Part shown: piece by piece, positions 5,384 through 34,214 of the stretch
Numbering within the stretch: the stretch's first letter is position 1
How the letters are laid out: each line of letters starts with the position of its first letter
Assembly (NCBI RefSeq): GCF_018129005.1
Contig: NZ_JAAEDL010000002.1
Span: 77,897 to 141,896, forward strand
Origin: Neoroseomonas eburnea
Lineage (GTDB): Bacteria > Pseudomonadota > Alphaproteobacteria > Acetobacterales > Acetobacteraceae
Length of the DNA stretch: 64,000 bases
Direction: 5' to 3'
The notes under the pieces: model-generated
The model's input: only the letters and a program-made list of their open reading frames with translations
Database searches by the model: none
What the model was told of the DNA's origin: nothing
Position numbers and translations under genes: made by a program

Positions 5384-5516
5384 GAAGGTCGGGGGAGGAG
5401 AACCTCCCCCGATCCCCCTCCCTTCCTTGTCCCTTGGGAACTGACTTCGGCTGTCAGTCCCCAGGTGCCAGAGAAGGTTGGGGGGTGCGGGGGGAAGTTC
5501 CCTTCCCCCCGACCTT
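5384..5516. repeat. Intergenic repeat family A, copy 1 (three-hairpin palindromic element, about 130 bp)
   Basis: The left arm gaaggtcgggggaggagaacctcccccgatccccctccc is an imperfect inverse of the right arm ggttggggggtgcggggggaagttcccttccccccgacctt. The central hairpin is gggaactgacttcggctgtcagtcccc. It sits between the hyfF-like stop and the large-subunit start. Three further copies are listed below. Confidence 0.8.
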
Positions 5517-5525
5517 TGTCGCCCC

Positions 5526-7034
5526 ATGACCGCAACCGCCCTCATCCGCGGCGGTGCCCCGCAGGGCGCCCGGCCCTTCGAGCGCTTCCTCCTCACTGCC
5601 GAGACCTGGGCGGAACTGCCGGCGGCGCTGCTGGCCGAGCCTTCGCTCGCCTTGCTCGGCCTATGGGCGGAGCCCGGCATGGTGCATGCCGCGTTCATGG
5701 ATGACGAGACGAACGCGGCGCTGCTCGCCTCCGCCCCGGCCGGGGCCGGCCGCTACACCGCCCTCTCCTCCGCCCGCCCCGGTGCCATCCGCTTCGAGCG
5801 CATGATCCGCGACCTCTGGGCGCTGACGGCGGAGGGCGCGGTCGATCTCCGCCCCTGGCTCGACCACGGGCGCTGGGGCCTGGAGGGCCCGATGTCCGGC
5901 CGCCCCGCGGTGACGGGCGGCGAGCCGCCGCAGCCCGAATTCCTCCCCGTCGAGGGCGAGGGCGTGCATCAGATCCCGGTCGGCCCGATCCATGCCGGCG
6001 TCATCGAGCCCGGTCATTTCCGCTTCCACATCCAGGGCGAGCTGGTGGTCCGGCTGGAGGAGCGGCTCGGCTACAAGCACAAGGGCACGCTCGGGCTGAT
6101 GCTCGGCAAGTCGCCGCGCGCCGCGGCGGCCTTCGCGGCGCGGCTGTCCGGCGATTCCACCGTCGCGCATGGCTGGGCCTTCGCCGCCGCGGCGGAGGCC
6201 GCGCTCGGCGCCGAGGTGCCGCCCCGGGCGCTGGCGCTGCGCGCGGTGATGGGCGAGCTCGAGCGCATCCACAATCACCTCAACGACTGGGGCTTCGTCT
6301 GCAACGATGCCGCCTTCGCCTTCCCGCATGCCCGCTGCGGCTGGCTGCGCGAAGGCGTGCTGCGCGCCTGCGAGGGCGCCTTCGGCCATCGGCTGATGAT
6401 GGACCGCGTGCTGCCCGGCGGCGTGGCGCCGGACATCGCGCCGGGCGGGGCGGAGGCGATCCTCGCCGCCCTCGACGCCGTGGAGCGCGAGACGCCCGCC
6501 CTGATGCGCATCTATGAGAGCCACGCCAGCCTGCAGGACCGGGTGGTCGGCACCGGGTTCCTCGACCCTATGCTGGCGGCGCGCTTCGCCGCCGGCGGCT
6601 TCGTCGGCCGTGGGTCGGGCCGGCGCTTCGATGCGCGGCGGGGGCCCGGCTACGCGCCCTTCGACGCCATGGTTCCGGCGCTCGCGGTGGAGACGGGCGG
6701 CGACGTCGATGCGCGGGTGCGGGTGCGGGTGGCGGAGATCGGTACCGCCATCTCGCTCGTGCGGCGCCTGCTGATGACACTGCCGGAGGGCGAGACGCTG
6801 CTCCCGCTGCCCTCCCGCGCCGGGGAAGGCAGCGCGATGATCGAGGGCTTCCGCGGGGAGTGCCTCGCCTGGGTGCGGCTGGACGAGGGCGGGCTGATCC
6901 GCGCGGTCTTCCTGCGCGACCCTTCCTGGCTGCAATGGCCGCTGCTGGAAGCCGCGATCGAGGGCAACATCGTCGCCGACTTCCCGCTGTGCAACAAATC
7001 CTTCAACTGCTCCTACAGCGGGGTGGACCTGTGA
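5526..7034 (+). CDS. NuoC-NuoD/HycE-like large subunit of an energy-converting-hydrogenase-related (Ehr-type) complex, lacking the [NiFe] cysteine ligands
   Basis: It contains PVGPIHAGVIEPGHFRF and ERLGYKHKG (NuoD/large-subunit signatures). At the position of the N-terminal RxCGxCxxxH motif the sequence is RLSGDSTVAH. The C-terminal DPCxxCxxH motif is replaced by DFPLCNKSFNCSYSGVDL. The start was set at ATG 5526; the upstream in-frame ATG at 5478 reads through repeat A. Confidence 0.85.
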   Translation: MTATALIRGGAPQGARPFERFLLTAETWAELPAALLAEPSLALLGLWAEPGMVHAAFMDDETNAALLASAPAGAGRYTALSSARPGAIRFERMIRDLWALTAEGAVDLRPWLDHGRWGLEGPMSGRPAVTGGEPPQPEFLPVEGEGVHQIPVGPIHAGVIEPGHFRFHIQGELVVRLEERLGYKHKGTLGLMLGKSPRAAAAFAARLSGDSTVAHGWAFAAAAEAALGAEVPPRALALRAVMGELERIHNHLNDWGFVCNDAAFAFPHARCGWLREGVLRACEGAFGHRLMMDRVLPGGVAPDIAPGGAEAILAALDAVERETPALMRIYESHASLQDRVVGTGFLDPMLAARFAAGGFVGRGSGRRFDARRGPGYAPFDAMVPALAVETGGDVDARVRVRVAEIGTAISLVRRLLMTLPEGETLLPLPSRAGEGSAMIEGFRGECLAWVRLDEGGLIRAVFLRDPSWLQWPLLEAAIEGNIVADFPLCNKSFNCSYSGVDL

Positions 7035-7414
7035 CCATCCGCTTCGACCAGACGATCCCGATCCTGCGCATCTTCGATCTCGCGAAGGCGCGCGAGTTCT
7101 ACGTCGACTTCCTCGGCATGAGCTGGGACTGGGAGCATCGCTTCGAGCCGGACCTGCCGGTCTTCGCGCAGGTCTCGCGCGGGGGGCTGCTGCTCTTCCT
7201 CAGCGAGCATTTCGGCGACGGCACGCCAGGGACCAAGCTGCTGCTGCGCATGGGCGGACTCGATGCCTTCCGCGCGGAACTTCTCGGCAGGGCCTATCGC
7301 CATGCCCGGCCTGGCATCCACGAGCGGCCCTGGGGATGGCGGGACATGGAGGTGACGGACCCCTTCGGCAACCGGCTCGTCTTCTCCGAGCGCATCGGGG
7401 AGACATGCGACTGA
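7032..7414 (+). CDS. Glyoxalase/bleomycin-resistance/dioxygenase (VOC) family protein embedded in the Ehr operon
   Basis: GTG at 7032 overlaps the large-subunit stop. About 127 aa. VTIRFDQTIPILRIFDLAKAREFYVDFLGMSWDWEHRF...LFLSEHFGDGTPG is a typical VOC fold sequence pattern. Its 3' end overlaps the next gene by 10 nt. Confidence 0.65.
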
Positions 7415-7947
7415 TGCTGTGGCCCCGCCTCGCCCGCGCCCTGCTCGGCAAGCCGCTGACCGATGCACCGCCGCCCGTGCCGCAGCATACGGTCGTCGCG
7501 TTGGGGGAACGCCTGGCCGCGGCCGCCCGCGTGCGGCTCGGCCGCAGCCTGGCGATCCGCGAGGTGGACAGCGGATCCTGCAACGGCTGCGAGCTGGAAG
7601 TGAACGCGCTGCAGAATGTCGCCTATGACCTCGAACGCTTCGGCCTGCGCTTCGTCGCCTCCCCCAGGCATGCCGACGTGCTACTGGTGACCGGCCCCGC
7701 CTGCCGCAACATGACGGAGGCCCTGCAGCGCGCCCTGGACTGCACCCCGGACCCGAAATGGATCGTCGCGGTCGGCGACTGCGCCGTCGATGGCGGCGTC
7801 TTCAAGGGATCCTATGCCATTGAGGGCGGCGTCGGCGCGGTGCTGCCGGTGGATCTGCTGATTCCGGGGTGCCCGCCCTCCCCCACCCAGTTGCTGGAAG
7901 GGCTGCTGGCGCTGCTGGAAGCCGAGGCGGCGCCGGCCCGGAGATAA
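7405..7947 (+). CDS. NuoB/HycG-like small subunit (Fe-S cluster N2-type)
   Basis: The motifs GSCNGCELE, GDCAVDGG and PGCPP provide the conserved NuoB-type cysteines. ATG at 7405 (MRLMLWPRL...). Confidence 0.85.
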   Translation: MRLMLWPRLARALLGKPLTDAPPPVPQHTVVALGERLAAAARVRLGRSLAIREVDSGSCNGCELEVNALQNVAYDLERFGLRFVASPRHADVLLVTGPACRNMTEALQRALDCTPDPKWIVAVGDCAVDGGVFKGSYAIEGGVGAVLPVDLLIPGCPPSPTQLLEGLLALLEAEAAPARR

Positions 7948-7952
7948 AATTG

Positions 7953-7980
7953 GGCCGGCCGGATCGCTCCAGCCGGCCCA
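7953..7980 (+). terminator. Candidate stem-loop terminator after the Ehr operon
   Basis: gggccggccggatcgctccagccggccc forms an 8-bp GC stem 6 nt after the stop. There is no U-tract, as is common in high-GC alphaproteobacteria. Confidence 0.3.
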
Positions 7981-8191
7981 AGAGCCCTTCCAGAGGAAGG
8001 ACCGGAAACGGTGGCCTGCCGGGAATAAGCCACCGTGACGGAAAGACCTTCGCAGCCGGCACCTCACGGCATGGTGGCAACCGCCTTAACTTCCTGCAAC
8101 CATTGTGCGAAGGGCTCCACCTCCCGCCATGCCCCCTCCCGCTGCCGTGATGCGGTATGGTGGGCGGCGGAATACCCGGAAGCGGGAGGCC

Positions 8192-9553
8192 ATGATGCGG
8201 AACGCAGCCTGGCGGACCGGCGCGGCGGCGAGCCTGCTGCTGAAGGCGGCTGTGGTGCTGGCGGTGCTCCTGGCGGCACTGCCGGCGCTCGCGCAGCAGC
8301 GCGTGGCGCTGGTGGTGGGCAACGGCGCCTACCGCGCCGTGCCGCGGCTCGCCAACCCCGCGGCGGATGCGGCGGCGATCGCCGGCGCGCTGCGGGCCGC
8401 GGGCTTCTCGACCGAGCTGGTGCGGGATTCCGCCAAGGACGGGATGGAAGCGGCGCTGCGCCGCTTCGGCGTGGCGGCGGAAGGCGCGGAACTCGCGGTC
8501 TTCTACTTCGCGGGGCACGGCATCCAGGTCGGCGGCGAGAACTATCTCCTGCCCGTGGATGCCCGGCTGTCCCATGCACGGGACGTGGATTTCGAGCTGA
8601 TCGGCCTGCCGGTCGTGACCCGGGCGATGCAGCCGGCGCGGGCGCGCGTGCTGATCCTCGATGCCTGCCGCGACAACCCGCTGGCGGCGCAGATGCGCGG
8701 GTTGTCCGGCACGCGTTCGGTCGGGCGGGGGCTCGCGCGGGTCGAGACGGTGGACCTCGGCACACTGATCGCATTCTCCACCAGCCCGGGGGCGGTGGCG
8801 CTGGACGGCACGGGGCGCAACAGCCCTTTCACCGCGGCGCTGGTGCAGCACATGGCGACGCCGGGCATCGAGATCCGGCAGTTGATGACGCGGGTGCGCC
8901 GCTCCGTGGTCGAGGCGACGGGCGGCCAGCAGGTGCCCTGGGACAACAGCAGCCTGATCACCGAGGTGGTGCTGCGGCCCGGGCGCGCCCCCGCCGCGCC
9001 GGCCCCGCCGCCGGTCGCCCTGGCGCCGCCGGCATCCCCCGTGCCGCAACCCACGCCGCAGCCCGCCCCGCGCGGCCGTGAGGCCACCATCGCTCCGACG
9101 GCCCCGGCCGTGCCGCTGCGTTTCGCGGCAGCCCGGCAGGTGGCGGCGAGCCAGGGCATTCCCCTGCCGGCCGACCTGCCGGCCGAGGCCGGCCGCGGTG
9201 CCCACCCCCTGCTCGGTGCCTGGGGCGGCACGCCGCGCTGGAACCGGACCGCGCGCGACTATCTGCTGATCGTCCTCGCCGTGGATGCGGCGGCCGGCTC
9301 GGCGGACATCCTGCTCGCGGCCGGCCATGGCACGACGCGCAGTTTCTCCGAAGGGCTGCAGCCAGGCTGGAGCCGCCACCGCGCGGCGCTGCGCGGCGAT
9401 TCCCTCATCTGGCAGGATGCCCTGGGCGACAGGTTCGAGGCCCGCCGCAGCGACTTCTTCGGCGAGGCGGTGGAGATCATCCACCGGCGGTCGGGCAGCG
9501 GCGGCCGCATCGTGAACGCCCAGGGGCAGATCGGGCTGGGCCGGATCGAATAG
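8192..9553 (+). CDS. Secreted caspase-family (peptidase C14) protein with a Pro-rich linker and an uncharacterised C-terminal domain
   Basis: The N-terminal signal/TM is AAASLLLKAAVVLAVLLAALPALAQQ. The caspase His-Cys dyad context is YFAGHGIQ and LILDACRDNP. Then comes a PAAPAPPPVALAPPASPVPQPTPQPAP linker followed by a domain of about 160 aa with no family I can name. Confidence 0.8.
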   Translation: MMRNAAWRTGAAASLLLKAAVVLAVLLAALPALAQQRVALVVGNGAYRAVPRLANPAADAAAIAGALRAAGFSTELVRDSAKDGMEAALRRFGVAAEGAELAVFYFAGHGIQVGGENYLLPVDARLSHARDVDFELIGLPVVTRAMQPARARVLILDACRDNPLAAQMRGLSGTRSVGRGLARVETVDLGTLIAFSTSPGAVALDGTGRNSPFTAALVQHMATPGIEIRQLMTRVRRSVVEATGGQQVPWDNSSLITEVVLRPGRAPAAPAPPPVALAPPASPVPQPTPQPAPRGREATIAPTAPAVPLRFAAARQVAASQGIPLPADLPAEAGRGAHPLLGAWGGTPRWNRTARDYLLIVLAVDAAAGSADILLAAGHGTTRSFSEGLQPGWSRHRAALRGDSLIWQDALGDRFEARRSDFFGEAVEIIHRRSGSGGRIVNAQGQIGLGRIE

Positions 9554-9583
9554 GTCGCCGCGTCATACCAACGGCCGCCATTT

Positions 9584-9685
9584 GCGACCGCTGGCATCCG
9601 CCCTTTCGTGCCCTGAGACGCCGGGCGCAAACCTCCGGTTTGCCTGGCTTCGCCGGACCACCGGCGGGCCGCATTCCGGATCCGC
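9584..9685. repeat. Intergenic repeat family C, copy 1 (about 100 bp)
   Basis: The segment gcgaccgctggcatccgccctttcgtgccctgagacgccgggcgcaaacctccggtttgcctggcttcgccggaccaccggcgggccgcattccggatccgc reappears inverted at 30827-30921 with about 90% identity. It contains a small hairpin caaacc-tcc-ggtttg. Confidence 0.6.
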
Positions 9686-9721
9686 GGTCACGCCGCAAGG
9701 CAACGCGACCGGTTGCCCGTC

Positions 9722-9765
9722 GCGGCCTCGGCACGAGTCAAGAACTCGTGCCGCCGGTATCAGAT
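9722..9765. repeat. Repeat family D, copy 1 (about 44-bp conserved terminator hairpin that also supplies the stop codon of the DUF1489 gene)
   Basis: gcggcctcggcacgagtcaagaactcgtgccgccggtatcaga. The stem is ggcacgagt / actcgtgcc. A near-identical copy lies at 34955-34997. Confidence 0.55.
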
Positions 9766-10197
9766 CAGGCAGAGCTCCGCCAGGTCCCGCCGCAGCTTCG
9801 GCGGCAGCCTGTCCAGCCCGCGGGCGGCAGGGCGTTCCAGCGCGACGTCCGGCGGCGCTTCCTCCGGCTTGAGGTAGCGCCAGCCCTGGAAGGGCTTCAT
9901 CGGGCGCGCCTCCACCGGCACCAGCGTCGGGTCGAGCACCAGCGCCGCGCAGGCGGTGCCGTCGTCCCATTCCTCCTCGCGGATCTCGAGGATGCGCTGG
10001 CGCACCCGGACGAAGCCGGCGACCACCCAGTAGATCGAGCCGCCGTCGGTGACCTCCTCGATCCGCTTGGGGAACATGCGGGTCCAGGCGCGCAGCGGCG
10101 GGTCGGTGCGCAGGCGCTCCTGCTGGATCGCCGCCAGCGCGGCGACGTCCTTGGGCCCGACGGAGAGCTTGATCAGGTGCAGCACGGCCCCCTGCAT
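9760..10197 (-). CDS. DUF1489 family protein
   Basis: MQGAVLHLIKLSVGPKDVAALAAIQQERL...GSIYWVVAGFVRVRQRILEIRE matches the conserved alphaproteobacterial DUF1489 pattern. Start chosen at ATG 10197; the ORF extends further upstream to 10329. Confidence 0.55.
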   Translation of the reverse strand: MQGAVLHLIKLSVGPKDVAALAAIQQERLRTDPPLRAWTRMFPKRIEEVTDGGSIYWVVAGFVRVRQRILEIREEEWDDGTACAALVLDPTLVPVEARPMKPFQGWRYLKPEEAPPDVALERPAARGLDRLPPKLRRDLAELCLI

Positions 10198-10312
10198 GTC
10201 GCGCCGCGGGCCGAGTCGGCAAGCCCCATCCGTCGCAACGCTTCGTAACCGGCCGCGACGCCCCGGCGAAGTCCCGGCAGGAGCGGTCTTCAGGGCCGCG
10301 CCGGAGACCCCG

Positions 10313-11060
10313 ATGGCCCGTCCCGACATCCCGGCCGAGCACCGCCCGCGCCTCTATCGCTCGGCGCGGGACACGCCGCTCGATATCGTCCGCGGCTGGC
10401 TGCAGGTCTCGGTCTTCGGCGCCCATGCGGTGGGCTCGGCCTTGGGCGCCTGGGGCATCCACGCCGCCCGGCGGCTGTCCAAAGCTTCGGGGCAGTTCCT
10501 CTTCCTCTCGGGCTTCGTGCCCGGCTCGGTCCACACGCTCAAGGCGCATCGGAACGAGGTCGGGGCAGCCGGGCGGGACCCGCGGCAGCGGGCCGGCCGG
10601 GCGTGGCTGACGCACCGCCTGCTGTTCTGCATGTTCGGGGCGCTGATCCTCCGGGCCAGGATGGCCCTGCCCCTGGCCTTAGAGACCGTTTGGAAAGTCC
10701 GTCACCGGTCCGCACCCCCACCCGGCCACCCACGTCAGTATGCTCGAATGGGTGACCGGGTGGGGGTGCGAGCCGGTGACGGACCCGGAAACGCGCCGCG
10801 AGGGGCGTTTCCAAACGGGCTCTTGGAGGTGGACCGGCTGCAATGGCGGATGCTGGCGGATGCCCCCTGGACGGCGCTGCTGCTCCACAGGCCGAATTAC
10901 CACGATATCCTGCCGGTCTTCGTCCTGTGCATGCTCGCCTTGCCCGGCTTCCTGTGGCGGGTGGAGCGGGCGGGCGCGGCGGCGTGGCCGACGGGGATTC
11001 GGCTCGGTTCCGCTGCCGAGCCATGCCGGCCTAGGATGCGCGCGCAATCGAACGGGCGCG
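10313..11060 (+). pseudogene. Remnant of an acyltransferase-3 (OafA/OpgC-like) membrane protein gene interrupted by the repeat-B MITE
   Basis: The N-terminal RDTPLDIVRGWLQVSVFGAHA...GQFLFLSGF resembles the acyltransferase-3 motifs (R-x-D-x-L-R-G and FFV-SGF). The frame reads straight through the 141-bp palindromic element at 10682-10822 and then stops making sense before the sigma-factor gene. The total length is far too short for an intact 10-TM acyltransferase. Confidence 0.3.
10682..10822. repeat. Repeat family B, copy 1 (about 140-bp large palindromic MITE-like element)
   Basis: gagaccgtttggaaa-gtccgtcaccggtccgcacccccacccggccaccc-[loop]-gggtgaccgggtgggggtgcgagccggtgacggac-...-tttccaaacgggctc. 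The arms are near-perfect reverse complements. The second copy is at 37245-37373. Confidence 0.75.
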
Positions 11061-11062
11061 CC

Positions 11063-11617
11063 GTGACGGCAGCACAGGACGGCCGGTGGGAAGCATGGAT
11101 GGCGGCGGCGCAGGCGGGGGACGCCCGCGCCTACGACCTGCTGCTGCGCGACTGCCTGCCCTTGCTGCGCGCCATCGCCCGCCGCCGTATCGCCGACCGG
11201 CACGAGGCCGAGGACGCGGTGCAGGACACGCTGCTCACCATCCATCGCATGCTCGCCGCCTACGACCCCGCCCGCCCCGCCCGCCCCTGGATCGCCGCCA
11301 TCGCCGAGCGCCGCTGCGTGGACCGCCTGCGCCGGCGCGGTCGCGGCGCCGGGCGGGAGACGCCGATCGACGACCATGCCGAGACCCTCGCCGCCCCGCC
11401 CGGCACGACGGGGGAGGACCGCATCGCCGGCCGCCAGTTGCGCGATGCCGTGGCGGAGCTGCCCGAGAGCCAGCGCACCGCGCTGCGCCTCGCGAAGCTC
11501 GAGGATCTGCCGCTGGCCGAGGCGGCCGCGCGGTCCGGCCTGTCGATCGGCGCGCTGAAGGTGGCGACGCACCGCGCGCTGAAGACGCTGCGCCGGCGCC
11601 TGGGCGGGGAGGAGTGA
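11063..11617 (+). CDS. ECF (sigma-70 family) RNA polymerase sigma factor, SigF-like
   Basis: Region 2 is [38 protein letters not shown]. Region 4 is [46 protein letters not shown]. The start is GTG 11063 (the alternative is ATG 11099). Confidence 0.85.
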
Positions 11618-11619
11618 CG

Positions 11620-12282
11620 ATGGAGACCGAGGAGCTGATCGGCCGCCTCACCGCCGGGCTCCGCCCCGTGCGGCGCCTGCCGCATCCGCTGCGCCGCGCG
11701 GCCACGTGGATCGGCTTCGCGCTGGCCGTGATCGCCGTCTTCGTCGCCGCCTTCGGCCCGCGCCAAGACCTGATGGAGCGCCTCCAACGGCCGCACGAGG
11801 TCGCGCAGCTCCTGTTCTGCCTGGCGACCGGCGTGCTGGCGGCGATCGCCGCCTTCGAGCTCTCCCTGCCCGACCGGTCCGCGCGCTGGGTGCTGCTGCC
11901 GCTGCCGGCGGCGGCGGCCTGGGTGGCGAGCCTCGGCATGGGCTGCCTCGCGGACATCGCGCGGATGGGGCCGCAGGCGCTGGTGTTCGGCGCCTCCTGG
12001 GGGTGCTTCCGATTCATCGTTCTGATGGGCGTGCCGCTGGCGCTCTCGCTGGTGTGGATGCTGCGCCATGCGGGGCCGATCCGGCCGGTGCCCGTTGCCG
12101 CCCTGGGCGGGCTCGCCGGCGCGGCGTTGAGCGCGGTCGGGCTGTCGATCTTCCACCACCTCGACGCCGCGCTGATGGTGCTGGCCTGGCATGGCGGCAC
12201 GACGCTGCTGGTGGTGGCGGGCTTCCTGCTCGCGGGGCGCGCCTGGGGCGCGCGGTCGATGCCGGGCTTCACGGCAGCTTAA
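11620..12282 (+). CDS. NrsF-family (DUF1109) membrane anti-sigma factor
   Basis: It begins 3 nt after the sigma-factor stop. 220 aa with six predicted TM helices and a conserved Cys pair ([25 protein letters not shown]). The gene order sigF-nrsF matches the Caulobacter heavy-metal stress module. Confidence 0.7.
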
Positions 12283-12335
12283 GGCGGTACCCGCAGGATG
12301 GCTCCGTCCATCCAGCCCGGGGGGGGTCCCGTCCC

Positions 12336-14657: not shown

Positions 14658-14691
14658 CGCGGGGCCTTCCCACCCCTCACCGGCATGTCCT

Positions 14692-14723
14692 GGAGCGGTT
14701 TCCACCCGGGTGGGAACCGCTCC
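14692..14723 (+). terminator. Near-perfect 16-bp-arm palindrome downstream of the MCP gene (candidate terminator)
   Basis: ggagcggtttccaccc-gggtgggaaccgctcc, flanked by catgtcc direct repeats, 35 nt after the stop. Confidence 0.4.
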
Positions 14724-14838
14724 AGCCATGTCCCGGCCGGCATCTGCGCGCATGCGGCCGATTTCCAGCCATGCGCGATCTGCTCTAGACCCCCCTTCGC
14801 GCGGCACTGCGGCCGCGCGAAAGGTCAGGAGCTAGCGC

Positions 14839-15870
14839 ATGGGCTACCGGGTCGCGGTCGTCGGCGCCACCGGCGCGGTGGGGCGGGAGATGCTGAAGAC
14901 GCTCGCCGAGCGGAACTTCCCGGTGAGCGAGGTGGTCGCCCTGGCCTCCGGCCGTTCCGCGGGCGCCGAGGTCTCCTTCGGCGAGAAGACGGTGCTCAAG
15001 GTGCGGGACCTCGAGCGCTTCGATTTCACCGGCATGGATATCGGGCTGTTCTCGCCCGGCGCGGCGGTCTCCGCCGTGCATGCGCCGCGTGCGGCGGCCG
15101 CGGGATGCCTCGTGATCGACAATACCTCCCAATTCCGCATGGAACCCGGCGTGCCGCTGGTGGTGCCGGAGGTGAACCCGCATTCCATCGCCAGGCGGCC
15201 GAAGAAGGGGATCATCGCCAACCCCAACTGCTCGACCATCCAGATGGTGGTGGCGCTCAAGCCGCTGCACGACATCTCACGCGTGAAGCGCGTGGTGGTC
15301 GCGACCTACCAGTCGGTCTCCGGCGCGGGGAAGGAGGCGATGGACGAGCTGTGGTCCCAGACCCGCGGCGTCTTCGTCAACGACCCGCCGCTCGCGGAGC
15401 AGTTCACCAAGCCGATCGCCTTCAACGTCATCCCGCATATCGACCGCTTCATGGACGATGGCGCGACGAAGGAGGAATGGAAGATGGCGGTGGAGACACG
15501 GAAGATCCTCGACCCCGACATCCAGGTGATGGCGACCTGCGTGCGCGTGCCGGTGATGATCGGCCATGGCGAGGCCGTGCATGTGGAGTTCGAGAATCCG
15601 ATCACCGAGCGCCAGGCGCGCGAGGCGCTGCGCGACGCGCCGGGCATCACGCTGCTCGACAGCCGTGACGATGGCGGCTACGCGACGCCGCTCGAGATCG
15701 CCGGCGAGGATGCTGTGTTCGTATCGCGGCTGCGGCGCGACCCGACGGTGCCGAACGGGCTCGCCTTCTGGTGCGTGGCGGACAACCTGCGCAAGGGGGC
15801 GGCGCTGAACGCGGTGCAGATCGCGGAGGAAGTGCATCGGAACGGAAGCCTGAAGGTTGGGGGAGGGTGA
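14839..15870 (+). CDS. asd: Aspartate-semialdehyde dehydrogenase
   Basis: MGYRVAVVGATGAVGREMLKTLAERNFP...IANPNCSTIQMVVALKPL...ATYQSVSGAGK are canonical Asd motifs. Confidence 0.95.
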   Translation: MGYRVAVVGATGAVGREMLKTLAERNFPVSEVVALASGRSAGAEVSFGEKTVLKVRDLERFDFTGMDIGLFSPGAAVSAVHAPRAAAAGCLVIDNTSQFRMEPGVPLVVPEVNPHSIARRPKKGIIANPNCSTIQMVVALKPLHDISRVKRVVVATYQSVSGAGKEAMDELWSQTRGVFVNDPPLAEQFTKPIAFNVIPHIDRFMDDGATKEEWKMAVETRKILDPDIQVMATCVRVPVMIGHGEAVHVEFENPITERQAREALRDAPGITLLDSRDDGGYATPLEIAGEDAVFVSRLRRDPTVPNGLAFWCVADNLRKGAALNAVQIAEEVHRNGSLKVGGG

Positions 15871-15980
15871 ACCTCCCCCAGACCCCCTCCCTTTTCTGGC
15901 TTCTGGGAACTGACATCGGAAGTCAGCTCCCAAAGGACAAAAAAAGGAGGGGGACCGGGGGAGTTCACTCCCCCGGCCTT
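15852..15980. repeat. Repeat family A, copy 2
   Basis: gaaggttgggggagggtgaacctcccccagaccccctccc ... gggaactgacatcggaagtcagctccc ... ggagggggaccgggggagttcactcccccggcctt. It overlaps the last 19 nt of asd and the stop of the convergent DMT transporter gene. Confidence 0.75.
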
Positions 15981-21960: not shown

Positions 21961-21972
21961 GGATCCCGACCG

Positions 21973-22755: not shown

Positions 22756-22775
22756 ACCGCCCGCGCCCGACGCGC

Positions 22776-22815: not shown

Positions 22816-22889
22816 TTGCATGTCGAAATGATGGCTCTCCCGGGCACCGTGGCGCTAGCCTTCCGGCAACGCCATGACGGGAGGCCGGA

Positions 22890-24461: not shown

Positions 24462-24621
24462 AGCGGATCCCGATCAGGTGGCCTCGCCTGGACGGGTGAA
24501 GATGCTCGCGAAAGCACGAGGCTCGAGCGGCCGCCATGGGCCGGAGCGAGCGGAAACCGCTTCAGCCGGCCGGGCGGCGCCCCTGAGCGGGGCGTTCCGG
24601 GTGGTGCGGTGCCGGTGGCGG

Positions 24622-26844: not shown

Positions 26845-26917
26845 CGTCTATAGCGTGATCTGGATCAGTGTTCGCAGACGCATCTGCGTACAGATTGTTG
26901 CTGGAAGGTTCCGCATC

Positions 26918-27574
26918 ATGAAGTTTTTCGTCGACACCGCAGAGGTTGCAGACATCCGGTCGCTCGCAGCGGCCGGCCTCGTGGACGGCGTCACCACCAA
27001 CCCCTCCCTGGTCGCGAAATCCGGCCGCGACTTCAAGGAGGTGATCGCGGAGATCTGTGCCATCACCCCCGGCCCGGTCAGCGCGGAGGTCACCGCCACG
27101 GACGCCGCCGGCATGATCGCCGAGGGCAAGGTGCTGCGCGCCATCGCGCCCAATGTCGCCGTGAAGGTGCCGCTGACCGAGGCCGGCCTGGTCGCCTGCC
27201 GGACCCTGGCGGGCGAAGGCGCGATGGTCAACGTCACCCTCTGCTTCAGCCCCGCGCAGGCGCTGCTGGCCGCCAAGGCGGGCGCCACCTTCATCTCCCC
27301 CTTCGTGGGCCGGCTCGACGACATCTCGACCGACGGCATGCGGCTGATCGCGGACATCGTCCAGATCTACCGCAACTACCCCGCCCTGAAGACCGAGGTG
27401 CTGGTCGCCTCCGTCCGCCACCCGATCCACCTGATCGAGGCGGCGAAGATGGGCGCCCATGTCGCAACCCTTCCGCCGAACGTGATCCGGATGCTGCTGA
27501 AGCACCCGCTCACCGACCGCGGCCTGGAGGCCTTCCTGGCCGACTGGCAGAAGACGGGGCAATCCATCCTGTGA
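26918..27574 (+). CDS. tal: Transaldolase/fructose-6-phosphate aldolase (type 3 short transaldolase)
   Basis: [31 protein letters not shown]...[12 protein letters not shown]...[13 protein letters not shown]. The catalytic Lys context and the length of about 218 aa are typical of Fsa/TalC-type enzymes. Confidence 0.85.
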
Positions 27575-28251
27575 GCGAAAGCCTCCCCGCCAAGGGCGTC
27601 CTGACGGACCTCCAGGCGGAGGAGGTCGAAGCCTTCCTGCGCGCCCATCCGGGCTTCCTGGCGGAGCGCCCGGACCTCTACCGGGCGCTGCTGCCGCCGC
27701 GACGCGTACATGGCGAACGGCTGGCCGACCACATGGCCGCGATGCTCGAGGCCGAGCGCAGCCGCACCCGGGCGCTCGAGACCGAGATGTTCGCCGCGAT
27801 CGAGGCCGGCCGCGCCGGCGCGGGCCTGACCGTGCGCATCCGCCTCGCCGTGCTGGCGCTGATGCGCGCCCAGGACGTGCTGGAGGCGGTGACGCAGGAG
27901 ATCCCTGCGCTGCTTGGCGTCGAGACCTGCACCCTGGCCGCCGAGCCTTCCGGGATGTTGTTGCCGGCCCTGCCGGCCGGCATCCTGCCGCTGCCACCGG
28001 GCGCCGTCGTCCGGCTGATCGGGCGCGGCCGCGACGCGGTGGTGCGGTCCCACCCGACCGAAACGGTTCTGCTCCATGCCGAGGCCGCCGGCCTGGTGAT
28101 GCGCGACGCGCTCGCCCGCGTGCCCCTGTCGGTCGGCCCGCCGGCGCTGATCGCGCTCGGCGCGCGGGAACCGGCCGCCCTGCCCGCCCGGCAGACGGTG
28201 GCGATCCTCTCCTTCCTCGGCCGCGCCGTGGCGGCCGCGCTGTCGCGCTGA
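27571..28251 (+). CDS. DUF484 family protein (conserved partner gene upstream of xerC)
   Basis: GTG start overlaps the tal stop. 226 aa. The gene order DUF484-xerC is widely conserved in proteobacteria. Confidence 0.55.
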
Positions 28252-28252
28252 G

Positions 28253-29185
28253 ATGACCGGCGATCAGGCGCGCGCCGCCTGGCTCGCCTGGCTGGCGCAG
28301 GAGCGGCGGGCGAGCCCCAACACGCTGGAAGCCTACGGCCACGACGCCGCGGCGTTCCTCGGCTTCCTGACGCGCCACCTGGGCGGGGAGCCGGATCTCG
28401 TGGCGCTCGGCGCGCTGCGCCCGGCGGATCTGCGCGGCTTCCTGGCGGAACGCGCCGCGGCGGGCGATTCCAACGCGACGCGCGCGCGTCGGCTTGCCGC
28501 CATCCGCGGCTTCCTGCGCTACCTGACGCGGCGGCACGGCATGGCGGCACTGCCGGTCGGCGCGCTGCGCGGCCCGCGGCCGAAACCGCCCATCCCCCGC
28601 GCGCTGACGCCCGAGACCGCGCGCAGCGTCGCCACCGAGGCGGGCGATGTCTACGACCCCGAACGCCACGAGCGCGCGCCCCTGCAGGCGGCGCGCGACG
28701 TCGCGCTGTTCAGCCTGCTCTATGGCGCCGGGCTGCGCATCGCGGAGGCGCTGGCGCTGAACCTCGGCGATGCACCGCTGCCGGGCAGCGAGGCCGCGCT
28801 GCGCGTCATCGGCAAGGGCAGCAAGGAACGGCTGGTGCCGGTGCTGCCGGCGGTGCGCGCCGCGGTCGCCGCGTACCTGAAGCATCGCGGGCCGGGCGGG
28901 CCGGGGGAACCGCTCTTCATCGGCGCGCGCGGCAAGCGGCTCGATCCCGCCGTGGCGCAGCGATCGCTGCGGGAATTCCGCCGCCTCGCCGGCCTGCCCG
29001 AGCACGCGACGCCGCACGCGCTGCGGCATTCCTTCGCGACCCATCTGCTCGGCGCCGGCGCCGACCTGCGCGCCATCCAGGAACTGCTGGGCCATGCCAG
29101 CCTGTCCACCACGCAACGCTACACGGCGGTCGATGCCGCGGGGCTGCTGGCGACCTGGAAGAAGGCGCATCCGCGGGCGGGCTGA
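28253..29185 (+). CDS. xerC: Tyrosine recombinase XerC
   Basis: It begins 1 nt after the DUF484 stop. The catalytic motifs are HALRHSFATHLL and LGHASLSTTQRYT (R-H-R-Y tyrosine recombinase). The N-terminal core-binding domain is LAWLAQERRASPNTLEAY. Confidence 0.85.
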   Translation: MTGDQARAAWLAWLAQERRASPNTLEAYGHDAAAFLGFLTRHLGGEPDLVALGALRPADLRGFLAERAAAGDSNATRARRLAAIRGFLRYLTRRHGMAALPVGALRGPRPKPPIPRALTPETARSVATEAGDVYDPERHERAPLQAARDVALFSLLYGAGLRIAEALALNLGDAPLPGSEAALRVIGKGSKERLVPVLPAVRAAVAAYLKHRGPGGPGEPLFIGARGKRLDPAVAQRSLREFRRLAGLPEHATPHALRHSFATHLLGAGADLRAIQELLGHASLSTTQRYTAVDAAGLLATWKKAHPRAG

Positions 29186-29274
29186 TCGGCGCTCTACCGC
29201 CTTCCTGCATCGTCATGCGTCATGACACTGCCGTGAAGCGCCCGGCGCGAGGCGCGCGGCCGGATGGGATCACC

Positions 29275-30762
29275 ATGTTCGAAGCGGCCGAACTCGAGCA
29301 CGAGGTCAGCAAGGAAGACTACAGGAAGGAGGAGGCGGAGCTCCGCCGCGCCCTCCTGGCAGCGCAGCGGGAGCTCGGCCAGCAGCGCCGCTTCCCGGTG
29401 CTGATCCTGATCGCCGGCGTCGAGGGCGCGGGCAAGAGCGAGACGGTCCATCTGCTGAACGAGTGGCTGGACCCCCGCTTCATCGAGGTGAGCGGCTTCG
29501 GCCTGCCCACCGAGGAAGAAGCCGTTCATCCGCCCATGTGGCGCTTCTGGCGCGCCCTGCCGCCCAAGGGGCGTATCGGCATCTTCTTCGGCGCCTGGCA
29601 GACGGTGCCGATCCTCGAGCGCGTGCTGGGCAAGCTCGGTCCCGGCGGCTTCGCCACGCGCATGGAGGAGATCATGCGCCTCGAGCGCATGCTCGCCCAG
29701 GAAGGCGTGCTGCTGCTGAAATACTGGTTCCATTTGTCCAAGGCCCAGCAGAAGAAGCGCATCAAGTCGCTGGAGAAGGACAAGGAGACCTCCTGGAAGG
29801 TCACGCGCTACGACCGCACGCTGTTCGAGCACTACGACGACTTCATCGAGGTCTGCGAGCCCTACCTGCGCGAGACCTCGACCGGCGAGGCGCCCTGGAC
29901 GGTGGTGCCGGCGGCGAATGAGCGCTTCCGCGCGCTCTTCGTCGGGCGACACTTGCTGGGCGCGCTGCGTGCGCGGCTCGATGCGCCGGCGCCGGCGGCG
30001 GTGAAGGCAACGCCCGCGCCGCCGGCGGCGCCGGAGCAGGTCAACATCATCCGAGCCCTGACGCTGAAGCAGGAGATGTCGCGCGACGACTACGACAAGG
30101 AGCTCGCCGAAGCGCAGGGCCGTCTGGCCCGCGCGACGCGGCACAAGCGCTATGGCAGCATCAGCGTCATCGCGGTGTTCGAGGGCAACGACGCGGCCGG
30201 CAAGGGCGGCGCGGTGCGGCGGCTCGGCGCCGCGCTCGATCCGCGCGCCTACCGCATCGTGCCCGTCGCCGCGCCGACCGAGGAGGAACGCGCCCAGCCG
30301 TACCTCTGGCGCTTCTGGCGCCACGTGCCGCGGCCCGGAAGGCTGACGATCTTCGACCGGTCCTGGTACGGCCGCGTACTGGTGGAGCGCGTGGAAGGCT
30401 TCGCGGCGGAACCCGACTGGCGCCGCGCCTATGCCGAGATCAACGATTTCGAGGAGCAGCTCGTCACCAACGGCGCCGTGGTGGCGAAGTTCTGGCTGGC
30501 GATCAGCAAGGACGAGCAGCACCGCCGCTTCAAGGACCGCGAGGCGACCGCCTTCAAGCGCCACAAGATCACCGAGGAGGACTGGCGCAACCGCGAGAAG
30601 TGGGACGCCTACGAAGCCGCGGTCTGCGAGATGGTGGAACGCACCTCCACCGGCATGGCGCCGTGGACGCTCGTCGAGGCCGACAACAAGCTGCACGCGC
30701 GGGTGAAGGTGATCAGGACGCTCGCCGAGATGGTCGAGGACGGGCTGAAGCGGGCGAAGTGA
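29275..30762 (+). CDS. pap: Polyphosphate:AMP phosphotransferase (tandem PPK2 domains)
   Basis: Two PPK2 repeats, each with a Walker A-like motif (IAGVEGAGKSE and FEGNDAAGKGG) and a lid motif (WRFWRALPPKGRIGIFFGAWQ and WRFWRHVPRPGRLTIFDRSWY). Confidence 0.85.
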   Translation: MFEAAELEHEVSKEDYRKEEAELRRALLAAQRELGQQRRFPVLILIAGVEGAGKSETVHLLNEWLDPRFIEVSGFGLPTEEEAVHPPMWRFWRALPPKGRIGIFFGAWQTVPILERVLGKLGPGGFATRMEEIMRLERMLAQEGVLLLKYWFHLSKAQQKKRIKSLEKDKETSWKVTRYDRTLFEHYDDFIEVCEPYLRETSTGEAPWTVVPAANERFRALFVGRHLLGALRARLDAPAPAAVKATPAPPAAPEQVNIIRALTLKQEMSRDDYDKELAEAQGRLARATRHKRYGSISVIAVFEGNDAAGKGGAVRRLGAALDPRAYRIVPVAAPTEEERAQPYLWRFWRHVPRPGRLTIFDRSWYGRVLVERVEGFAAEPDWRRAYAEINDFEEQLVTNGAVVAKFWLAISKDEQHRRFKDREATAFKRHKITEEDWRNREKWDAYEAAVCEMVERTSTGMAPWTLVEADNKLHARVKVIRTLAEMVEDGLKRAK

Positions 30763-30826
30763 TGCGGTCGGTGCCCGCACCGGCCGCATTGCATGTGCGC
30801 TGGTGGGCGGCCAGGCGCCGGACAAG

Positions 30827-30921
30827 GCGGATTCGGGCCGCGGGTGGTCCGGCGAAGCCAAGCAAACCGGAGGTTTGCGCCCGGCGCCTGAGGGCACGAA
30901 ACGGCCGATGCCAGCGGTCGC
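30827..30921. repeat. Repeat family C, copy 2 (inverted relative to copy 1)
   Basis: It is the reverse complement of 9584-9685 with a few mismatches. It lies between the convergent pap and SPFH genes, directly abutting repeat A copy 3. Confidence 0.6.
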
Positions 30922-30939
30922 GAAGAGCGGCCGTTGGCA

Positions 30940-31069
30940 TGAGGTCGGGGGAGGAGAACCTCCCCCGATCCCCCTCCCTTCCTTGTCGGGGCGCATCGCC
31001 GATGGCGATGCGCAAGGATCCCAAAGAAGGTTGGGGGGTTCGGGGGGAAGTTCCCTTCCCCCCGACCTT
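30940..31069. repeat. Repeat family A, copy 3
   Basis: gaggtcgggggaggagaacctcccccgatccccctccc ... gcgcatcgccgatggcgatgcgc (a perfect 10-bp-arm central hairpin) ... ggttggggggttcggggggaagttcccttccccccgacctt. Confidence 0.8.
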
Positions 31070-32932
31070 TCACCGCGCCGGCAAGGGCGGCGGCCGCGTC
31101 GTCGGCACGTCCGCCGGCTGCGGCCCACGCAGCATCGCCGCGATCCCTTCCAGCCCCGTCCCCCCGCCCGTCACCAGCGTCTGCGGCACCAGCCGCGGCG
31201 CCAGCGAGATCAGTTCCGGCTTCTCCCGCAGCGTCGCCAGCACCTGCTGCAATGCCTGCAGCAGCAGCGCGTTGGACGGACCGAGCACGTTTGCCTGCGC
31301 TTCCTGGCCGCGCGCCAGCGATTCCAGGTAGCGCCGCTCCGCCTCGCCGAGGTTCTGCCGTTCCACCATCGTGCGTTCCGAGACCTGCACGGCGATCTGC
31401 GCGCGCACCAGTTCCCGCTGCTGGTCGGCGGTGGCGCGGGCCTGCTCGGTCTTCACCCGTTCCTCCTGCGCGATCGTCTCCTGCTGGTAGGCCTGGCGGA
31501 GCTGCTGCGCGAGCTGCTCGCGACGGCGGGCGACCAGCAGTTCCGGCGGGATGACGCTTTCGCCGAAACGGAGCTGGTTGACCTCCAGCCCGGCCTTCGC
31601 CGCCTCCTCCCGCACCAGGCGCTCGATCGTCGTCTCGATGGCGTCGCGCTGGTCCACCAGGTCCAGCACGCGGGTCGCGCGGCGCGTGGTGCCGACGACG
31701 ATCTCGGACCCCACCACGTTTCGCACGACGGAGCGGATCATCGGCGTGATGACACGGTCCTCGATCTCGCCGAGGCCGCCGACGGAGGCGACCACGAAGG
31801 GCGCGTTGGTCGGCGTCACCTGCACCAGCACGCGCAGTTCCTGCGGCACGTCCCACCCCTCGACCCGGACCATCACGGCGCGGTCGGCGGCCTCGCGCGG
31901 GACGGGAACGGGCTGCGTCGTGGCGCTCTGCTGGATCTCACCGCGCTGATCCACCGTGAGGTTGATCCGACGCTCGTCATAGCCACCGCGATATTCCCAG
32001 GTCTGCAGTCGGACATCGACCAGCGTCACCGCATAGGCATCGCGGTTCATGTAGTACGCGCCGGGAAGCAGCGGGTCGCGCCAGACGCCGCGGCAGCCGG
32101 CCGGCACCAGGGCGACGGTCAGCGCCTCGGCCTGGGCGGGGGCACGTTCCTCGCGGCAGTCGCGGCCGCGCTCGGTCACGTTGGACTTCACCACGCCGAC
32201 ATGGCCCGCCGGCACCTCGATCACCGAGGTCAGTTCCGTCTGCGGGCGCTCGTGGCGCACCACGCGCAGCCCGGCGCGGTCGTAGGTGACGGTGCGGTCC
32301 GGCTGCCGGATCTCGACCCGGAAGAGGTAGAGATTCAGCGGATAGCGACCGGGCTTCAGGATCGAGGTCTGCGCGCCGCGTTGCCCCCGAGGGCCGGCGC
32401 CGGCGCGTTCCTCGCCGAGGAAGAAGGTCGCGTCGAGCATGCGCGCGGAAAGCTCTTCCGGCCAGGAATCGGCCATCACCTGGTCGGCCGGCATGGGGGC
32501 GCCGTCGGCGGCCTGGATGCGGCCATAGGTGCCGTTCGGGATCTCCACCATCGGCAGCAGGTCGATGTCGTGCGTCAGGCGGATGAGCGGCCAGAAGGAC
32601 ACGCCCGGCGGCAGCACCTGCGCCTGGAAGCCGTTCTCGCCGCCCGTCGCGATGACGCGGCCGGCGGGCATGGAGCGGCCGCCGTAGATCTTGCGCAGGT
32701 GGCCGACCTCATCCGCGCCGACCTGCACGATGGAGGCACCGGCGAAGAGGCAGACCACGCCCGCGCCGGCCAGGATGCCGCTGGTCAGGCGCCAGCCCTG
32801 GGCGGCTGCGGCGCCTGCCGGCCCCTCCAGCGCCGGCGGGCCGCGGCGGCGCTGCAGCCAGATCCGCACCGGCAGCAGCACGGCCAGCGCAAGCGCCGCG
32901 ACGCCGGCCAGGAGAAAGAGGAAGGACAGCAT
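31070..32932 (-). CDS. SPFH/band-7 (flotillin-like) membrane protein
   Basis: N-terminal TM, an SPFH domain of about 250 aa, then a long Glu/Ala/Gln/Arg-rich coiled-coil (QQLRQAYQQETIAQEERVKTEQARATADQQRELVRAQIAVQ) typical of the flotillin C-terminal region. Confidence 0.65.
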   Translation of the reverse strand: MLSFLFLLAGVAALALAVLLPVRIWLQRRRGPPALEGPAGAAAAQGWRLTSGILAGAGVVCLFAGASIVQVGADEVGHLRKIYGGRSMPAGRVIATGGENGFQAQVLPPGVSFWPLIRLTHDIDLLPMVEIPNGTYGRIQAADGAPMPADQVMADSWPEELSARMLDATFFLGEERAGAGPRGQRGAQTSILKPGRYPLNLYLFRVEIRQPDRTVTYDRAGLRVVRHERPQTELTSVIEVPAGHVGVVKSNVTERGRDCREERAPAQAEALTVALVPAGCRGVWRDPLLPGAYYMNRDAYAVTLVDVRLQTWEYRGGYDERRINLTVDQRGEIQQSATTQPVPVPREAADRAVMVRVEGWDVPQELRVLVQVTPTNAPFVVASVGGLGEIEDRVITPMIRSVVRNVVGSEIVVGTTRRATRVLDLVDQRDAIETTIERLVREEAAKAGLEVNQLRFGESVIPPELLVARRREQLAQQLRQAYQQETIAQEERVKTEQARATADQQRELVRAQIAVQVSERTMVERQNLGEAERRYLESLARGQEAQANVLGPSNALLLQALQQVLATLREKPELISLAPRLVPQTLVTGGGTGLEGIAAMLRGPQPADVPTTRPPPLPAR

Positions 32933-33014
32933 CGCGGTCTCCGCCGTTGGCTACGCGCACCGATCCTACGGGGCGCGGCGGCGGCGAGCCATGACGATCC
33001 TCACGTGCGCGGCA

Positions 33015-34013
33015 CTACTCCACGCGAACATCGGCGGTGCGGATCACCTCGCCCCAGCGCGCGACCTCGGCGCGCAGGAAGTCACCGGTCGGGCCCGGCG
33101 GCCGGCCTTCGACGACGAAGCCGAGATCCTGCAGGCGGCGCGTCATGGCGGGCTCGCGCACGATGGTGGCGACCTCGGCCGCGATGCGGTCCAGCACCGG
33201 CTGCGGCGTGCGCGCGGGGGCGAGCAGCATGCACCAGGAGCTGGCGACGAAATCCGGCAGGCCGCCCTCGATGATGGTCGGCAGTTCGGGCGCGAAGCTG
33301 GGGCGGGTCGCGGTGGCGATCCCGAGCGCGCGGACATTGCCGGCCTCGAACTGCGGCTTCAGCGTCGAGTAGGTGTCGAACATCAGGCCGATATTGCCGG
33401 CCATCAGGTCCTGCAGCGCCGGCTGGGTGCCGCGGTAGGGGACGTGCTCCATGCGCAGCCCGGTGCGGAGCTGGAGCTGTTCCATCGCGAGATGCGCGGT
33501 GGCGCCGATGCCGCTCGATCCGTAGTTCACGCGGCCGGGGCGGGCGCGGATGTATTCGACGAAGCCGCGGAAATCCTCGGCCGGCACGTGCTTGGTGCCG
33601 GCCAGCACCAGCGGCGCCTGCACCACCAGGCTGACCGGCGCGAAGGAGGCCAGCGCGTCGAATGGCATCTTGCCGGCCTGGAGCGTGGCGTTCGCCGCAT
33701 GGGCCGGCAGCACCATCACCAGCGTGTAGCCGTCGGGCGGGGAGGAGGCGGCCGCGGCGGCGCCGACGATGCTGTTGGCGCCGGGGCGGTTCTCCACCAC
33801 CACCGGCTGGCCGAGCACGCGGGAGAGTGGTTCCGCGACCAGGCGCGTCGCGATGTCGGTCGTGCCGCCGGGCGTGTAGGGAACGATGATGCGCAGCGGG
33901 CGTGTGGGCCATTCCTGCGCGGAAGCGCCACGGGCGGCGAGCGCCAGGCCGGCGGTGACGCCTAGTGCCGCGCGGCGGGAGAGGCCGCGCCGCGGCGCGT
34001 CGTGGGTGGTCAT
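33015..34013 (-). CDS. Tripartite tricarboxylate transporter substrate-binding protein (TctC/Bug family) with Tat-type signal
   Basis: RRGLSRRAALGVTAGLALAARGASA (twin-arginine signal). The Bug-family core is IIVPYTPGGTTDIATRLVAEPLSRVLGQPVVVENRPGANSIVGAAA...PDGYTL. It is an orphan; no tctA/tctB genes are adjacent. Confidence 0.85.
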   Translation of the reverse strand: MTTHDAPRRGLSRRAALGVTAGLALAARGASAQEWPTRPLRIIVPYTPGGTTDIATRLVAEPLSRVLGQPVVVENRPGANSIVGAAAAASSPPDGYTLVMVLPAHAANATLQAGKMPFDALASFAPVSLVVQAPLVLAGTKHVPAEDFRGFVEYIRARPGRVNYGSSGIGATAHLAMEQLQLRTGLRMEHVPYRGTQPALQDLMAGNIGLMFDTYSTLKPQFEAGNVRALGIATATRPSFAPELPTIIEGGLPDFVASSWCMLLAPARTPQPVLDRIAAEVATIVREPAMTRRLQDLGFVVEGRPPGPTGDFLRAEVARWGEVIRTADVRVE

Positions 34014-34088
34014 GGTCGTTTCCCCGGATGGTGCATGTTGTGGGCTTGCGGCGCAGTCTATGGGGTTCGCGCGGGTGGGCAAGGCGCG

Positions 34089-34214
34089 AAGGTCGGGGGA
34101 GGAGAACCTCCCCCGAACCCCCCCTCCCTTCTTTGGTGTCTCTTGCGCATCGCCGCAGGCGATGCGCCCGGACAGAAGAAGGAGGGGGTTTGGGGGAGTT
34201 CACTCCCCCAACCT
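34089..34214. repeat. Repeat family A, copy 4
   Basis: gaaggtcgggggaggagaacctcccccgaaccccccctccc ... gcgcatcgccgcaggcgatgcgc ... ggagggggtttgggggagttcactcccccaacctt. It overlaps the 3' end of nfi by about 15 nt. Confidence 0.75.

Follow-up and report, generated by a model that had tools for sequence, protein, structure and literature searches.

A family of REP-like palindromic repeats gained and lost at gene 3' ends in Neoroseomonas eburnea and its relatives

In a 64,000-nt stretch of the genome of the alphaproteobacterium Neoroseomonas eburnea (contig NZ_JAAEDL010000002.1, positions 77,897 to 141,896; referred to here as the window, with all coordinates counted from its first nucleotide), four copies of a palindromic intergenic element of about 130 bp were found to belong to a repeat family that is real and abundant. 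The family consists of dispersed, modular, non-coding DNA, which is gained and lost site by site and decays to centre-less and single-arm remnants. It represents a local counterpart of repeats of the repetitive extragenic palindromic (REP), REP-doublet (REPIN) and bacterial interspersed mosaic element (BIME) type, and not a new type of system. Apparently, it is a lineage-specific family of the Neoroseomonas/Roseomonas branch of the Acetobacteraceae that has been undescribed so far; literature searches found no published description of such repeats in Roseomonas or Acetobacteraceae.

The distribution of the element was analyzed by scanning species-representative genomes with the pattern of its arm, which yielded at least 105 stretches, and by searching these loci with a sequence profile. 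In total, at least 84 further non-overlapping copies were detected in at least 13 Roseomonas and Neoroseomonas genomes and metagenome-assembled genomes (MAGs). Most of the stretches listed originated from Roseomonas sp. HF4, N. soli, N. rubea, N. oryzicola, and R. nitratireducens, and the others from N. marina, N. terrae, N. alkaliterrae, N. lacus, the strains CECT 9278 and CAU 1739, and three MAGs. Profile E-values reached down to 1e-33, and the similarity extended over more than 100 nt, the unpaired linkers and the C/T-rich stem included. Among the matches listed, approximately 60 were full copies (118–139 nt), accompanied by a class without the central tip (94–111 nt) and by approximately 20 half copies (42–53 nt) composed of the left arm and the C/T-rich strand. 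The repeat family postulated in the original prediction is thus clearly not restricted to four copies in one window, but recurs many times in related genomes. As expected for a high-copy repeat, contigs of short-read draft assemblies end inside the element, namely one of N. eburnea, one of N. soli (locus L107), and five of N. rubea.

Matches obtained in other phyla represented the bare hairpin alone and were unrelated to the family. The same applied to 68 of the 72 matches recovered when viral contigs were scanned with the arm pattern; true family members were found in only four contigs of the viral set (68–74% GC). The bare hairpin, GGGGGAGG-NGAA-CCTCCCCC, appeared terminator-like in many low-GC viral contigs, often following an A-run. 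A blastn search of copy 1 against plasmids, rhizobial megaplasmids included, returned no match, although the low-complexity filter may mask the element in such a search.

Within the window, the four copies previously proposed were recovered by alignment, by matches of the left-arm core GGGGGAGGAGAACCTCCCCC, and by a profile built from 47 family members. At three mismatches or fewer, GGGGGAGGAGAACCTCCCCC matched the window six times, compared with 0.02 matches expected by chance; these are the four left arms and, on the other strand, two right arms. The 47-member profile identified exactly these four copies in the 64 kb and no partial ones. All four copies are in plus orientation and align end to end, with pairwise identities between 58% and 80% (copies 1 and 3 being the closest pair) in a window of 71% G+C. 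Their parts are as follows:

5384 to 5516, plus strand: copy 1, full element, whose orthologous sites were compared
5389 to 5412, plus strand: copy 1, left arm hairpin TCGGGGGAGG-AGAA-CCTCCCCCGA, with closing pairs that covary in the family
5413 to 5486, plus strand: copy 1, central stem CCCCCTCCCTTCCTTG / CAGAGAAGGTTGGGGGG with tip module 1, GGGAACTGAC-TTCGGCT-GTCAGTCCCC
5487 to 5512, plus strand: copy 1, right arm hairpin, variant A, GCGGGGGGAAG-TTCC-CTTCCCCCCGA
15852 to 15980, plus strand: copy 2, full element, between the convergent asd and EamA transporter genes
15857 to 15881, plus strand: copy 2, left arm hairpin TTGGGGGAGG-GTGAA-CCTCCCCCAG; the TGA in its loop (15868–15870) is the asd stop
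15882 to 15954, plus strand: copy 2, central stem with tip module 1, GGGAACTGAC-ATCGGAA-GTCAGCTCCC
15955 to 15976, plus strand: copy 2, right arm hairpin, variant B, CCGGGGGAG-TTCA-CTCCCCCGG; its TCA (15965–15967) is the EamA stop (TGA) on the minus strand
30940 to 31069, plus strand: copy 3, full element, between the PPK2 gene and the convergent SPFH/Band7 gene
30945 to 30968, plus strand: copy 3, left arm hairpin, same sequence as the left arm of copy 1
30969 to 31039, plus strand: copy 3, central stem with tip module 2, GCGCATCGCC-GAT-GGCGATGCGC
31040 to 31065, plus strand: copy 3, right arm hairpin, variant A
34089 to 34214, plus strand: copy 4, full element, between the minus-strand endonuclease V gene (34200–34967) and a TctC-family gene (33015–34082)
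34093 to 34116, plus strand: copy 4, left arm hairpin
34117 to 34189, plus strand: copy 4, central stem with tip module 2, GCGCATCGCC-GCA-GGCGATGCGC
34190 to 34211, plus strand: copy 4, right arm hairpin, variant B; its TCA (34200–34202) is the endonuclease V stop

Two exchangeable modules distinguish the copies, as had been noticed before. The right arm occurs as GGGGGGAAGTTCCCTTCCCCCC in copies 1 and 3 and as GGGGGAGTTCACTCCCCC in copies 2 and 4, and the centre as GGGAACTGAC..GTCAG in copies 1 and 2 and as GCGCATCGCC..GGCGATGCGC in copies 3 and 4. Since each right-arm variant is combined with each centre somewhere in the window, giving all four combinations, the element is a mosaic, and relatives carry still other centres as well as centre-less forms. 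The recurring pseudo-peptides SGGRELPPxPPNLLW and KEGRGIGGGSPPPT were likewise found encoded on the minus strand of copies 1 and 3.

Each of the four copies folds far more stably than shuffled sequence, as a folding check was expected to reveal. On either strand, the single copies reached energies between -82 and -94 kcal/mol, with z = -6.9 to -9.7, and none of 200 shuffles folded as stably as the window copies. The minimum-energy fold of each single copy was one long hairpin, and not the three hairpins of the original prediction; at the level of the family, the three-hairpin form is the one supported. In most species, the unit reads (G)AAGG(T/G)C, with GGGGGAGG-NGAA-CCTCCCCC next as left arm; after a short linker come CCCCCTCCCTTCTTTG, a variable tip, and CAAAGAAGG(TT)GAGGGGGG, and another short linker leads to the right arm GGGGGGAGAAG-TTCC-CTTCTCCCCCC, from which the right-arm variants of the window differ. 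The central stem is formed by pairing of CCCCCTCCCTTCTTTG with CAAAGAAGG(TT)GAGGGGG, and its tip is exchangeable or dispensable. The central hairpin reported previously is therefore retained as part of this form, but the stem is much longer than had been described.

Support for the three-hairpin form comes from the covariation of paired positions. For pairing within the arms, none of 5000 partner shuffles reached the observed value in either arm, whereas pairing between the arms was no better than shuffled, both for the outer left and right flanks and for the inner flanks (1344 and 4177 of 5000). The closing pairs of the left arm vary across the family between TC..GA (19), GC..GC (7), TT..AA (3), and CC..GG (2), and further closing pairs of the right arm are AC..GT, CA..TG, and GT..AC. 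In the left arm, 15 double-sided changes were counted, with a covariation score of 0.094 compared with 0.040 and 0 of 500 shuffles scoring as high. RNAalifold, applied to an alignment of 47 copies, likewise returned three hairpins, namely the left arm, the central stem, and the right arm. A model of one single long hairpin, corresponding to a pure terminal inverted repeat (TIR), was set aside despite being the minimum-energy fold of each copy, because its long-range pairs lack covariation and the family consensus comprises three hairpins. These comparisons support an architecture in which a long central stem is enclosed by two REP-like G/C arms in inverted orientation.

Comparison with orthologous sites in sister species, suggested earlier as a check on insertion, revealed filled, half-filled, and empty sites. 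The copy 1 site is empty in N. marina and in a JGI relative, where the HyfF stop overlaps the start of the next gene (ATGA; GGATGAGCGCC). It is full in R. nitratireducens, as in N. eburnea, and three Logan contigs (90% protein identity) retain only the right-arm hairpin within a spacer of 49 nt. Copy 1 is thus inserted in place of an ATGA stop/start overlap between two operon genes (window 5366–5528). The filled sites all restart the downstream gene with ATGACC, so that the copy 1 insert has ATGA on either side; no Shine–Dalgarno sequence is visible before the downstream ATG. At the copy 4 site, N. marina is empty, with a spacer of 81 nt and unchanged gene order, and N. soli carries a half copy (L107). 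Such a distribution of filled, half-filled, and empty sites among sisters indicates a family that was inserting and decaying as the species diverged.

An orthologue of copy 2 was identified in Roseomonas sp. HF4 (L064:5441-5568), while 80 relatives from metagenomes lack the element downstream of asd. In the pair formed by copy 2 and its HF4 orthologue, identity is 93–97% in the arms, which include a compensatory change from T:A to C:G, 55% in the centre, and 77–85% in the coding DNA on the flanks. From this pattern we infer that the arms would be kept either by selection on pairing or by homogenisation among copies, with the centre being left to drift.

The position relative to genes was evaluated for 64 full or near-full copies using heuristic gene calls (open reading frames (ORFs) of at least 100 aa with high GC3). 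A gene 3' end was located within 60 nt of at least one end of the element in 57 of the 64 copies (left 43, right 33, both 19). For 27 of the 43 left-end cases, the stop codon was at -4 to +2 nt of the first base of the element, in the contexts TGAAGG, TAAGG, or TAGAAGG. As the gene faces only the left end in 24 copies and only the right end in 14, either end can be directed towards a gene and no strong orientation rule exists. The adjacency to stops, like the ATGA on both sides of the copy 1 insert, might result from targeting of stop regions, from copying together with flanking bases by template switching, or from selection alone.

The four copies of the window are flanked by housekeeping genes and illustrate this arrangement. 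Two of the flanking gene products, endonuclease V and the HyfF-like protein, share 100% identity with proteins recorded by NCBI for Roseomonas (Neoroseomonas) eburnea. Copy 1 lies between genes inside a hyf-like operon, as originally described: it starts 15 nt 3' of the stop of the Proton_antipo_M (HyfF-like) gene (3932–5368) and is separated by 9 nt from the ATG (5526) of the gene for the NiFe-hydrogenase-like large subunit. The overlap of copy 2 with two convergent stops was also confirmed, with both asd (14839–15870, plus strand) and EamA (stop 15965–15967, minus strand) terminating within the element. For copy 3, the corresponding description applies to the right end only, which adjoins the stop (31070–31072) of the minus-strand SPFH/Band7 gene (31070–32932). 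On the left, the PPK2 gene (29215–30762) stops 178 nt upstream, and no ORF of at least 20 aa terminates at the left edge. A distinct small hairpin, AACGGCCG...CGGCCGTT, lies at 30900–30939 in this 178-nt gap, immediately upstream of copy 3, and may be the PPK2 gene's own terminator. A point missing from the original prediction is the stop codon of endonuclease V (34200–34202) inside copy 4, the last four codons of this gene (R-L-G-E) being copy 4 sequence. The right-arm loop GTTCAC, read on the minus strand, provides the TGA that stops both EamA and endonuclease V. Similarly, the C-terminus of Asd is encoded by the element in N. eburnea (..GSLKVGGG before the stop) and in HF4 (..GALKAGGG), compared with ..GLLAKQAA or similar in the 80 metagenome relatives without the element.

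Taken together, we consider it probable that the element is a non-autonomous, REPIN/BIME-like repeat which is moved in trans and co-transcribed as a 3' hairpin. Movement in trans would most likely involve single-stranded hairpin DNA and an HUH/Y1-type enzyme (RAYT or IS200/IS605-like) encoded elsewhere in the genome. Since copies persist almost only directly behind stops, transcription would include them in the upstream mRNA as its 3' end, and copies 1 and 4 would be transcribed as spacers within operons. In E. coli, REP elements are barriers to 3'-5' exonucleases and partial terminators. By analogy, the stable hairpins of the present family would block 3'-5' exonucleases and act as partial, leaky, orientation-independent terminators, uncoupling upstream from downstream genes in their levels. 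Incidentally, the element also provides flanking genes with stop codons and their proteins with a few C-terminal residues. Speculatively, the copy 1 hairpin would place the next ATG within approximately 24 nt of the HyfF stop, which is perhaps why the insertion was tolerated.

Several observations weigh against this interpretation. A tblastn search with E. coli RayT gave no match in the window and approximately 190 loci, representing approximately 1% of the genomes concerned, and a search of plasmids with the same query detected no alphaproteobacterial RAYT. All-against-all clustering of 1504 ORFs from the 105 loci revealed no recurrent transposase; the recurrent clusters were ordinary paralogues, i.e., TctC, ABC, substrate-binding protein (SBP), CoA-transferase, and acyl-CoA dehydrogenase. 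With only approximately 1% of the genomes covered, the mobilising enzyme is thus purely inferred. The arms lack the GTAG/CGTC tag; in 77 copies, the six bases preceding the stem (-6 to -1) are AAGG(T/G)C, and GTAG was found in few. In addition, the ATGA flanking copy 1 lies 10–17 nt outside the conserved core and hints at a duplication, and the arm conservation between copy 2 and HF4 could instead reflect gene conversion or coding overlap. The proposed role at the RNA level relies on the analogy to REP elements, and a consensus terminator scan of copies 1 and 2 returned one antisense call (left arm of copy 1) and none at copy 2. The U-tracts of these two copies are weak, with C/T-rich flanks and no T-runs. 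As the scan misses the element apart from the antisense call, any termination would be non-canonical.

Other explanations were considered for the same observations. A classical MITE (miniature inverted-repeat transposable element), i.e., a deletion derivative of an insertion sequence (IS) with a DDE transposase, moved through the terminal inverted repeats GAAGGTCGGGGG ... CCCCCGACCTTC, would agree with the ends of the window copies being inverted copies of each other, with the size (95–145 bp) and copy number, and with the ATGA on both sides of the copy 1 insert; a sub-threshold Rfam match to the plant miRNA precursor family MIR1437, itself a long hairpin, also fits. However, no target-site duplication was detected at any boundary or length in 41–43 copies (k = 2–9 at offsets 0–11; k = 7–10 free in 45-nt flanks), and direct-repeat matches at the flanks equalled the shuffled expectation. 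Moreover, covariation joins the halves of each arm and not the left end with the right end, the right arm in most species is unlike the left one and lacks the GACCTTC end, and neither a parent IS nor a transposase was found in the 105 loci, and we regard this origin as unlikely. A palindrome that homes to stops or gene 3' ends, or that is copied together with flanking bases by a hairpin or microhomology template switch, without being driven by RAYT or IS, would explain the missing target-site duplications, the stop adjacency, and the ATGA on both sides of the operon insert at once. Its chance of being correct appears rather slim; if it were true, the stop-bearing loops (GTGAAC/GTTCAC) would be an adaptation for harmless landing in the last codons of convergent genes.

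The original prediction had placed a family of structured small RNAs (sRNAs) on an equal footing with a REP-type repeat. Very stable folds (z of about -7 to -10), compensatory changes in the arms, and a weak, sub-threshold likeness to the alphaproteobacterial sRNA models BjrC80 and ar35 are in accordance with sRNA genes or cis-regulatory RNA conserved for a strand-specific task. However, either end of the element faces the upstream gene, so that both strands are used, half and centre-less copies are common, copies overlap coding ends, and the centre is conserved at only 55% in the one orthologous pair. No promoter-like site was detected at copies 1 and 2, and no Rfam family reached its threshold on the element: in a permissive scan of two copies, which matched nothing but generic long-hairpin models, the best scores were 36.9 compared with 168, 25.1 compared with 80, and 21.5 compared with 45 bits, and across the whole window only a tRNA passed the gathering threshold. 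An RNA task of this kind is hence poorly supported as an equal alternative and seems highly improbable. It is hardly credible, finally, that the copies are ordinary, immobile terminator hairpins which arose in place and resemble each other merely through the G+C-rich genome without forming a repeat family. The location at gene 3' ends and the terminator-like bare hairpins of unrelated viral contigs would suit such an origin, but it is already contradicted by the profile matches, with their similarity over more than 100 nt, and by orthologous sites being filled or empty; assemblies break at the element, and the consensus terminator scan mostly fails.

The preferred reading of a REPIN/BIME-like repeat moved in trans draws on comparison with known systems. 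REPINs, as in Pseudomonas and Enterobacteria, are doublets of REP units that RAYT transposases mobilise (PMC3116915, PMC3337134). The family resembles them in its two short, G/C-rich, imperfect palindromes inverted around a spacer, the ability of the whole unit to fold as one long hairpin, the numerous intergenic copies, and the single-arm remnants. The lack of target-site duplications, the retention of one copy at an orthologous site across species, and the compensatory change in the arms are further common traits. In contrast to REPINs, the spacer forms a long stem of its own whose tips can be exchanged, the arms are non-identical in most species, the stop codon is unusually close to the element and often overlaps it, no GTAG/CGTC tag adjoins the stem, and no RAYT gene was found in the window and the approximately 190 loci. 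A GTAG or CGTC tetranucleotide at the end of the palindrome marks most RAYT-associated REPs, and CGTC REPs were missing from the Acetobacteraceae in a survey of 2013 (PMC3733652). Membership of the RAYT-associated REP superfamilies is accordingly not established by these sequence comparisons.

E. coli BIMEs are mosaics of Y and Z REP units with alternative linker motifs (PMC2817692). Like them, the family is a mosaic of arm and centre variants with copies at gene 3' ends and inside operons, and a similar effect on mRNA stability and termination would be expected; unlike BIMEs, to which its sequence is unrelated, it occurs as a single doublet per site and not as a tandem array. ERIC/IRU and the RU-1/2/3 elements are enterobacterial imperfect palindromes of 100–170 bp (PMC2759123, PMC2229807). 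The family is similar to ERIC, an imperfect palindrome of approximately 127 bp with internal insertion/deletion variants that is transcribed with neighbouring genes and sometimes adds codons to ORFs, but differs in sequence and host lineage. Furthermore, elements of the ERIC type are usually classed as MITEs, whereas the arms of the present family are independent hairpins. The likeness to the RIME and Sm-repeats of rhizobia, which are alphaproteobacterial intergenic elements of large palindromes, is by description only. The weak Rfam matches to BjrC80 (RF02354) and ar35 (RF02346) run along the whole element, but far below threshold. Consequently, the designation as REP/BIME/RIME-type put forward in the original prediction holds as a description (abundant, intergenic, palindromic, with inverted hairpin units, exchangeable modules, and presence or absence at individual sites), but not as membership of these named families.

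The window also contains other repeated sequences. A second, unrelated palindromic repeat family without Rfam match was observed at 10706–10823 and 37257–37374. Its cores (10750–10823 and 37301–37374) are 89% identical and form a hairpin GGAAACGCGCC-GCGA-GG(G/C)GCGTTTCC, and a segment upstream is the inverse of GGGTGACCGGGTGGGGGTGCG. Two tandem units of 90 nt (74% identical) at 57753–57932 are probably a repeated coding segment. The sole RNA gene detected in the window is a tRNA-Arg(CCT) at 39216–39292.

The general knowledge of such repeats is left unchanged by these findings, which extend REP/REPIN-like repeats to the Acetobacteraceae. For annotation, it is of relevance that the element creates spurious antisense ORFs and alters the real C-termini of Asd, EamA, and endonuclease V; for genome assembly, that it fragments short-read draft genomes of the genus. 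The copy 1 insert in the hydrogenase-like operon represents a natural test of how a hairpin of -89 kcal/mol is tolerated between translationally coupled genes. Finally, the filled, half-filled, and empty sites in sequenced type strains provide a clean system for questions on the movement of these repeats and their adjacency to stop codons.

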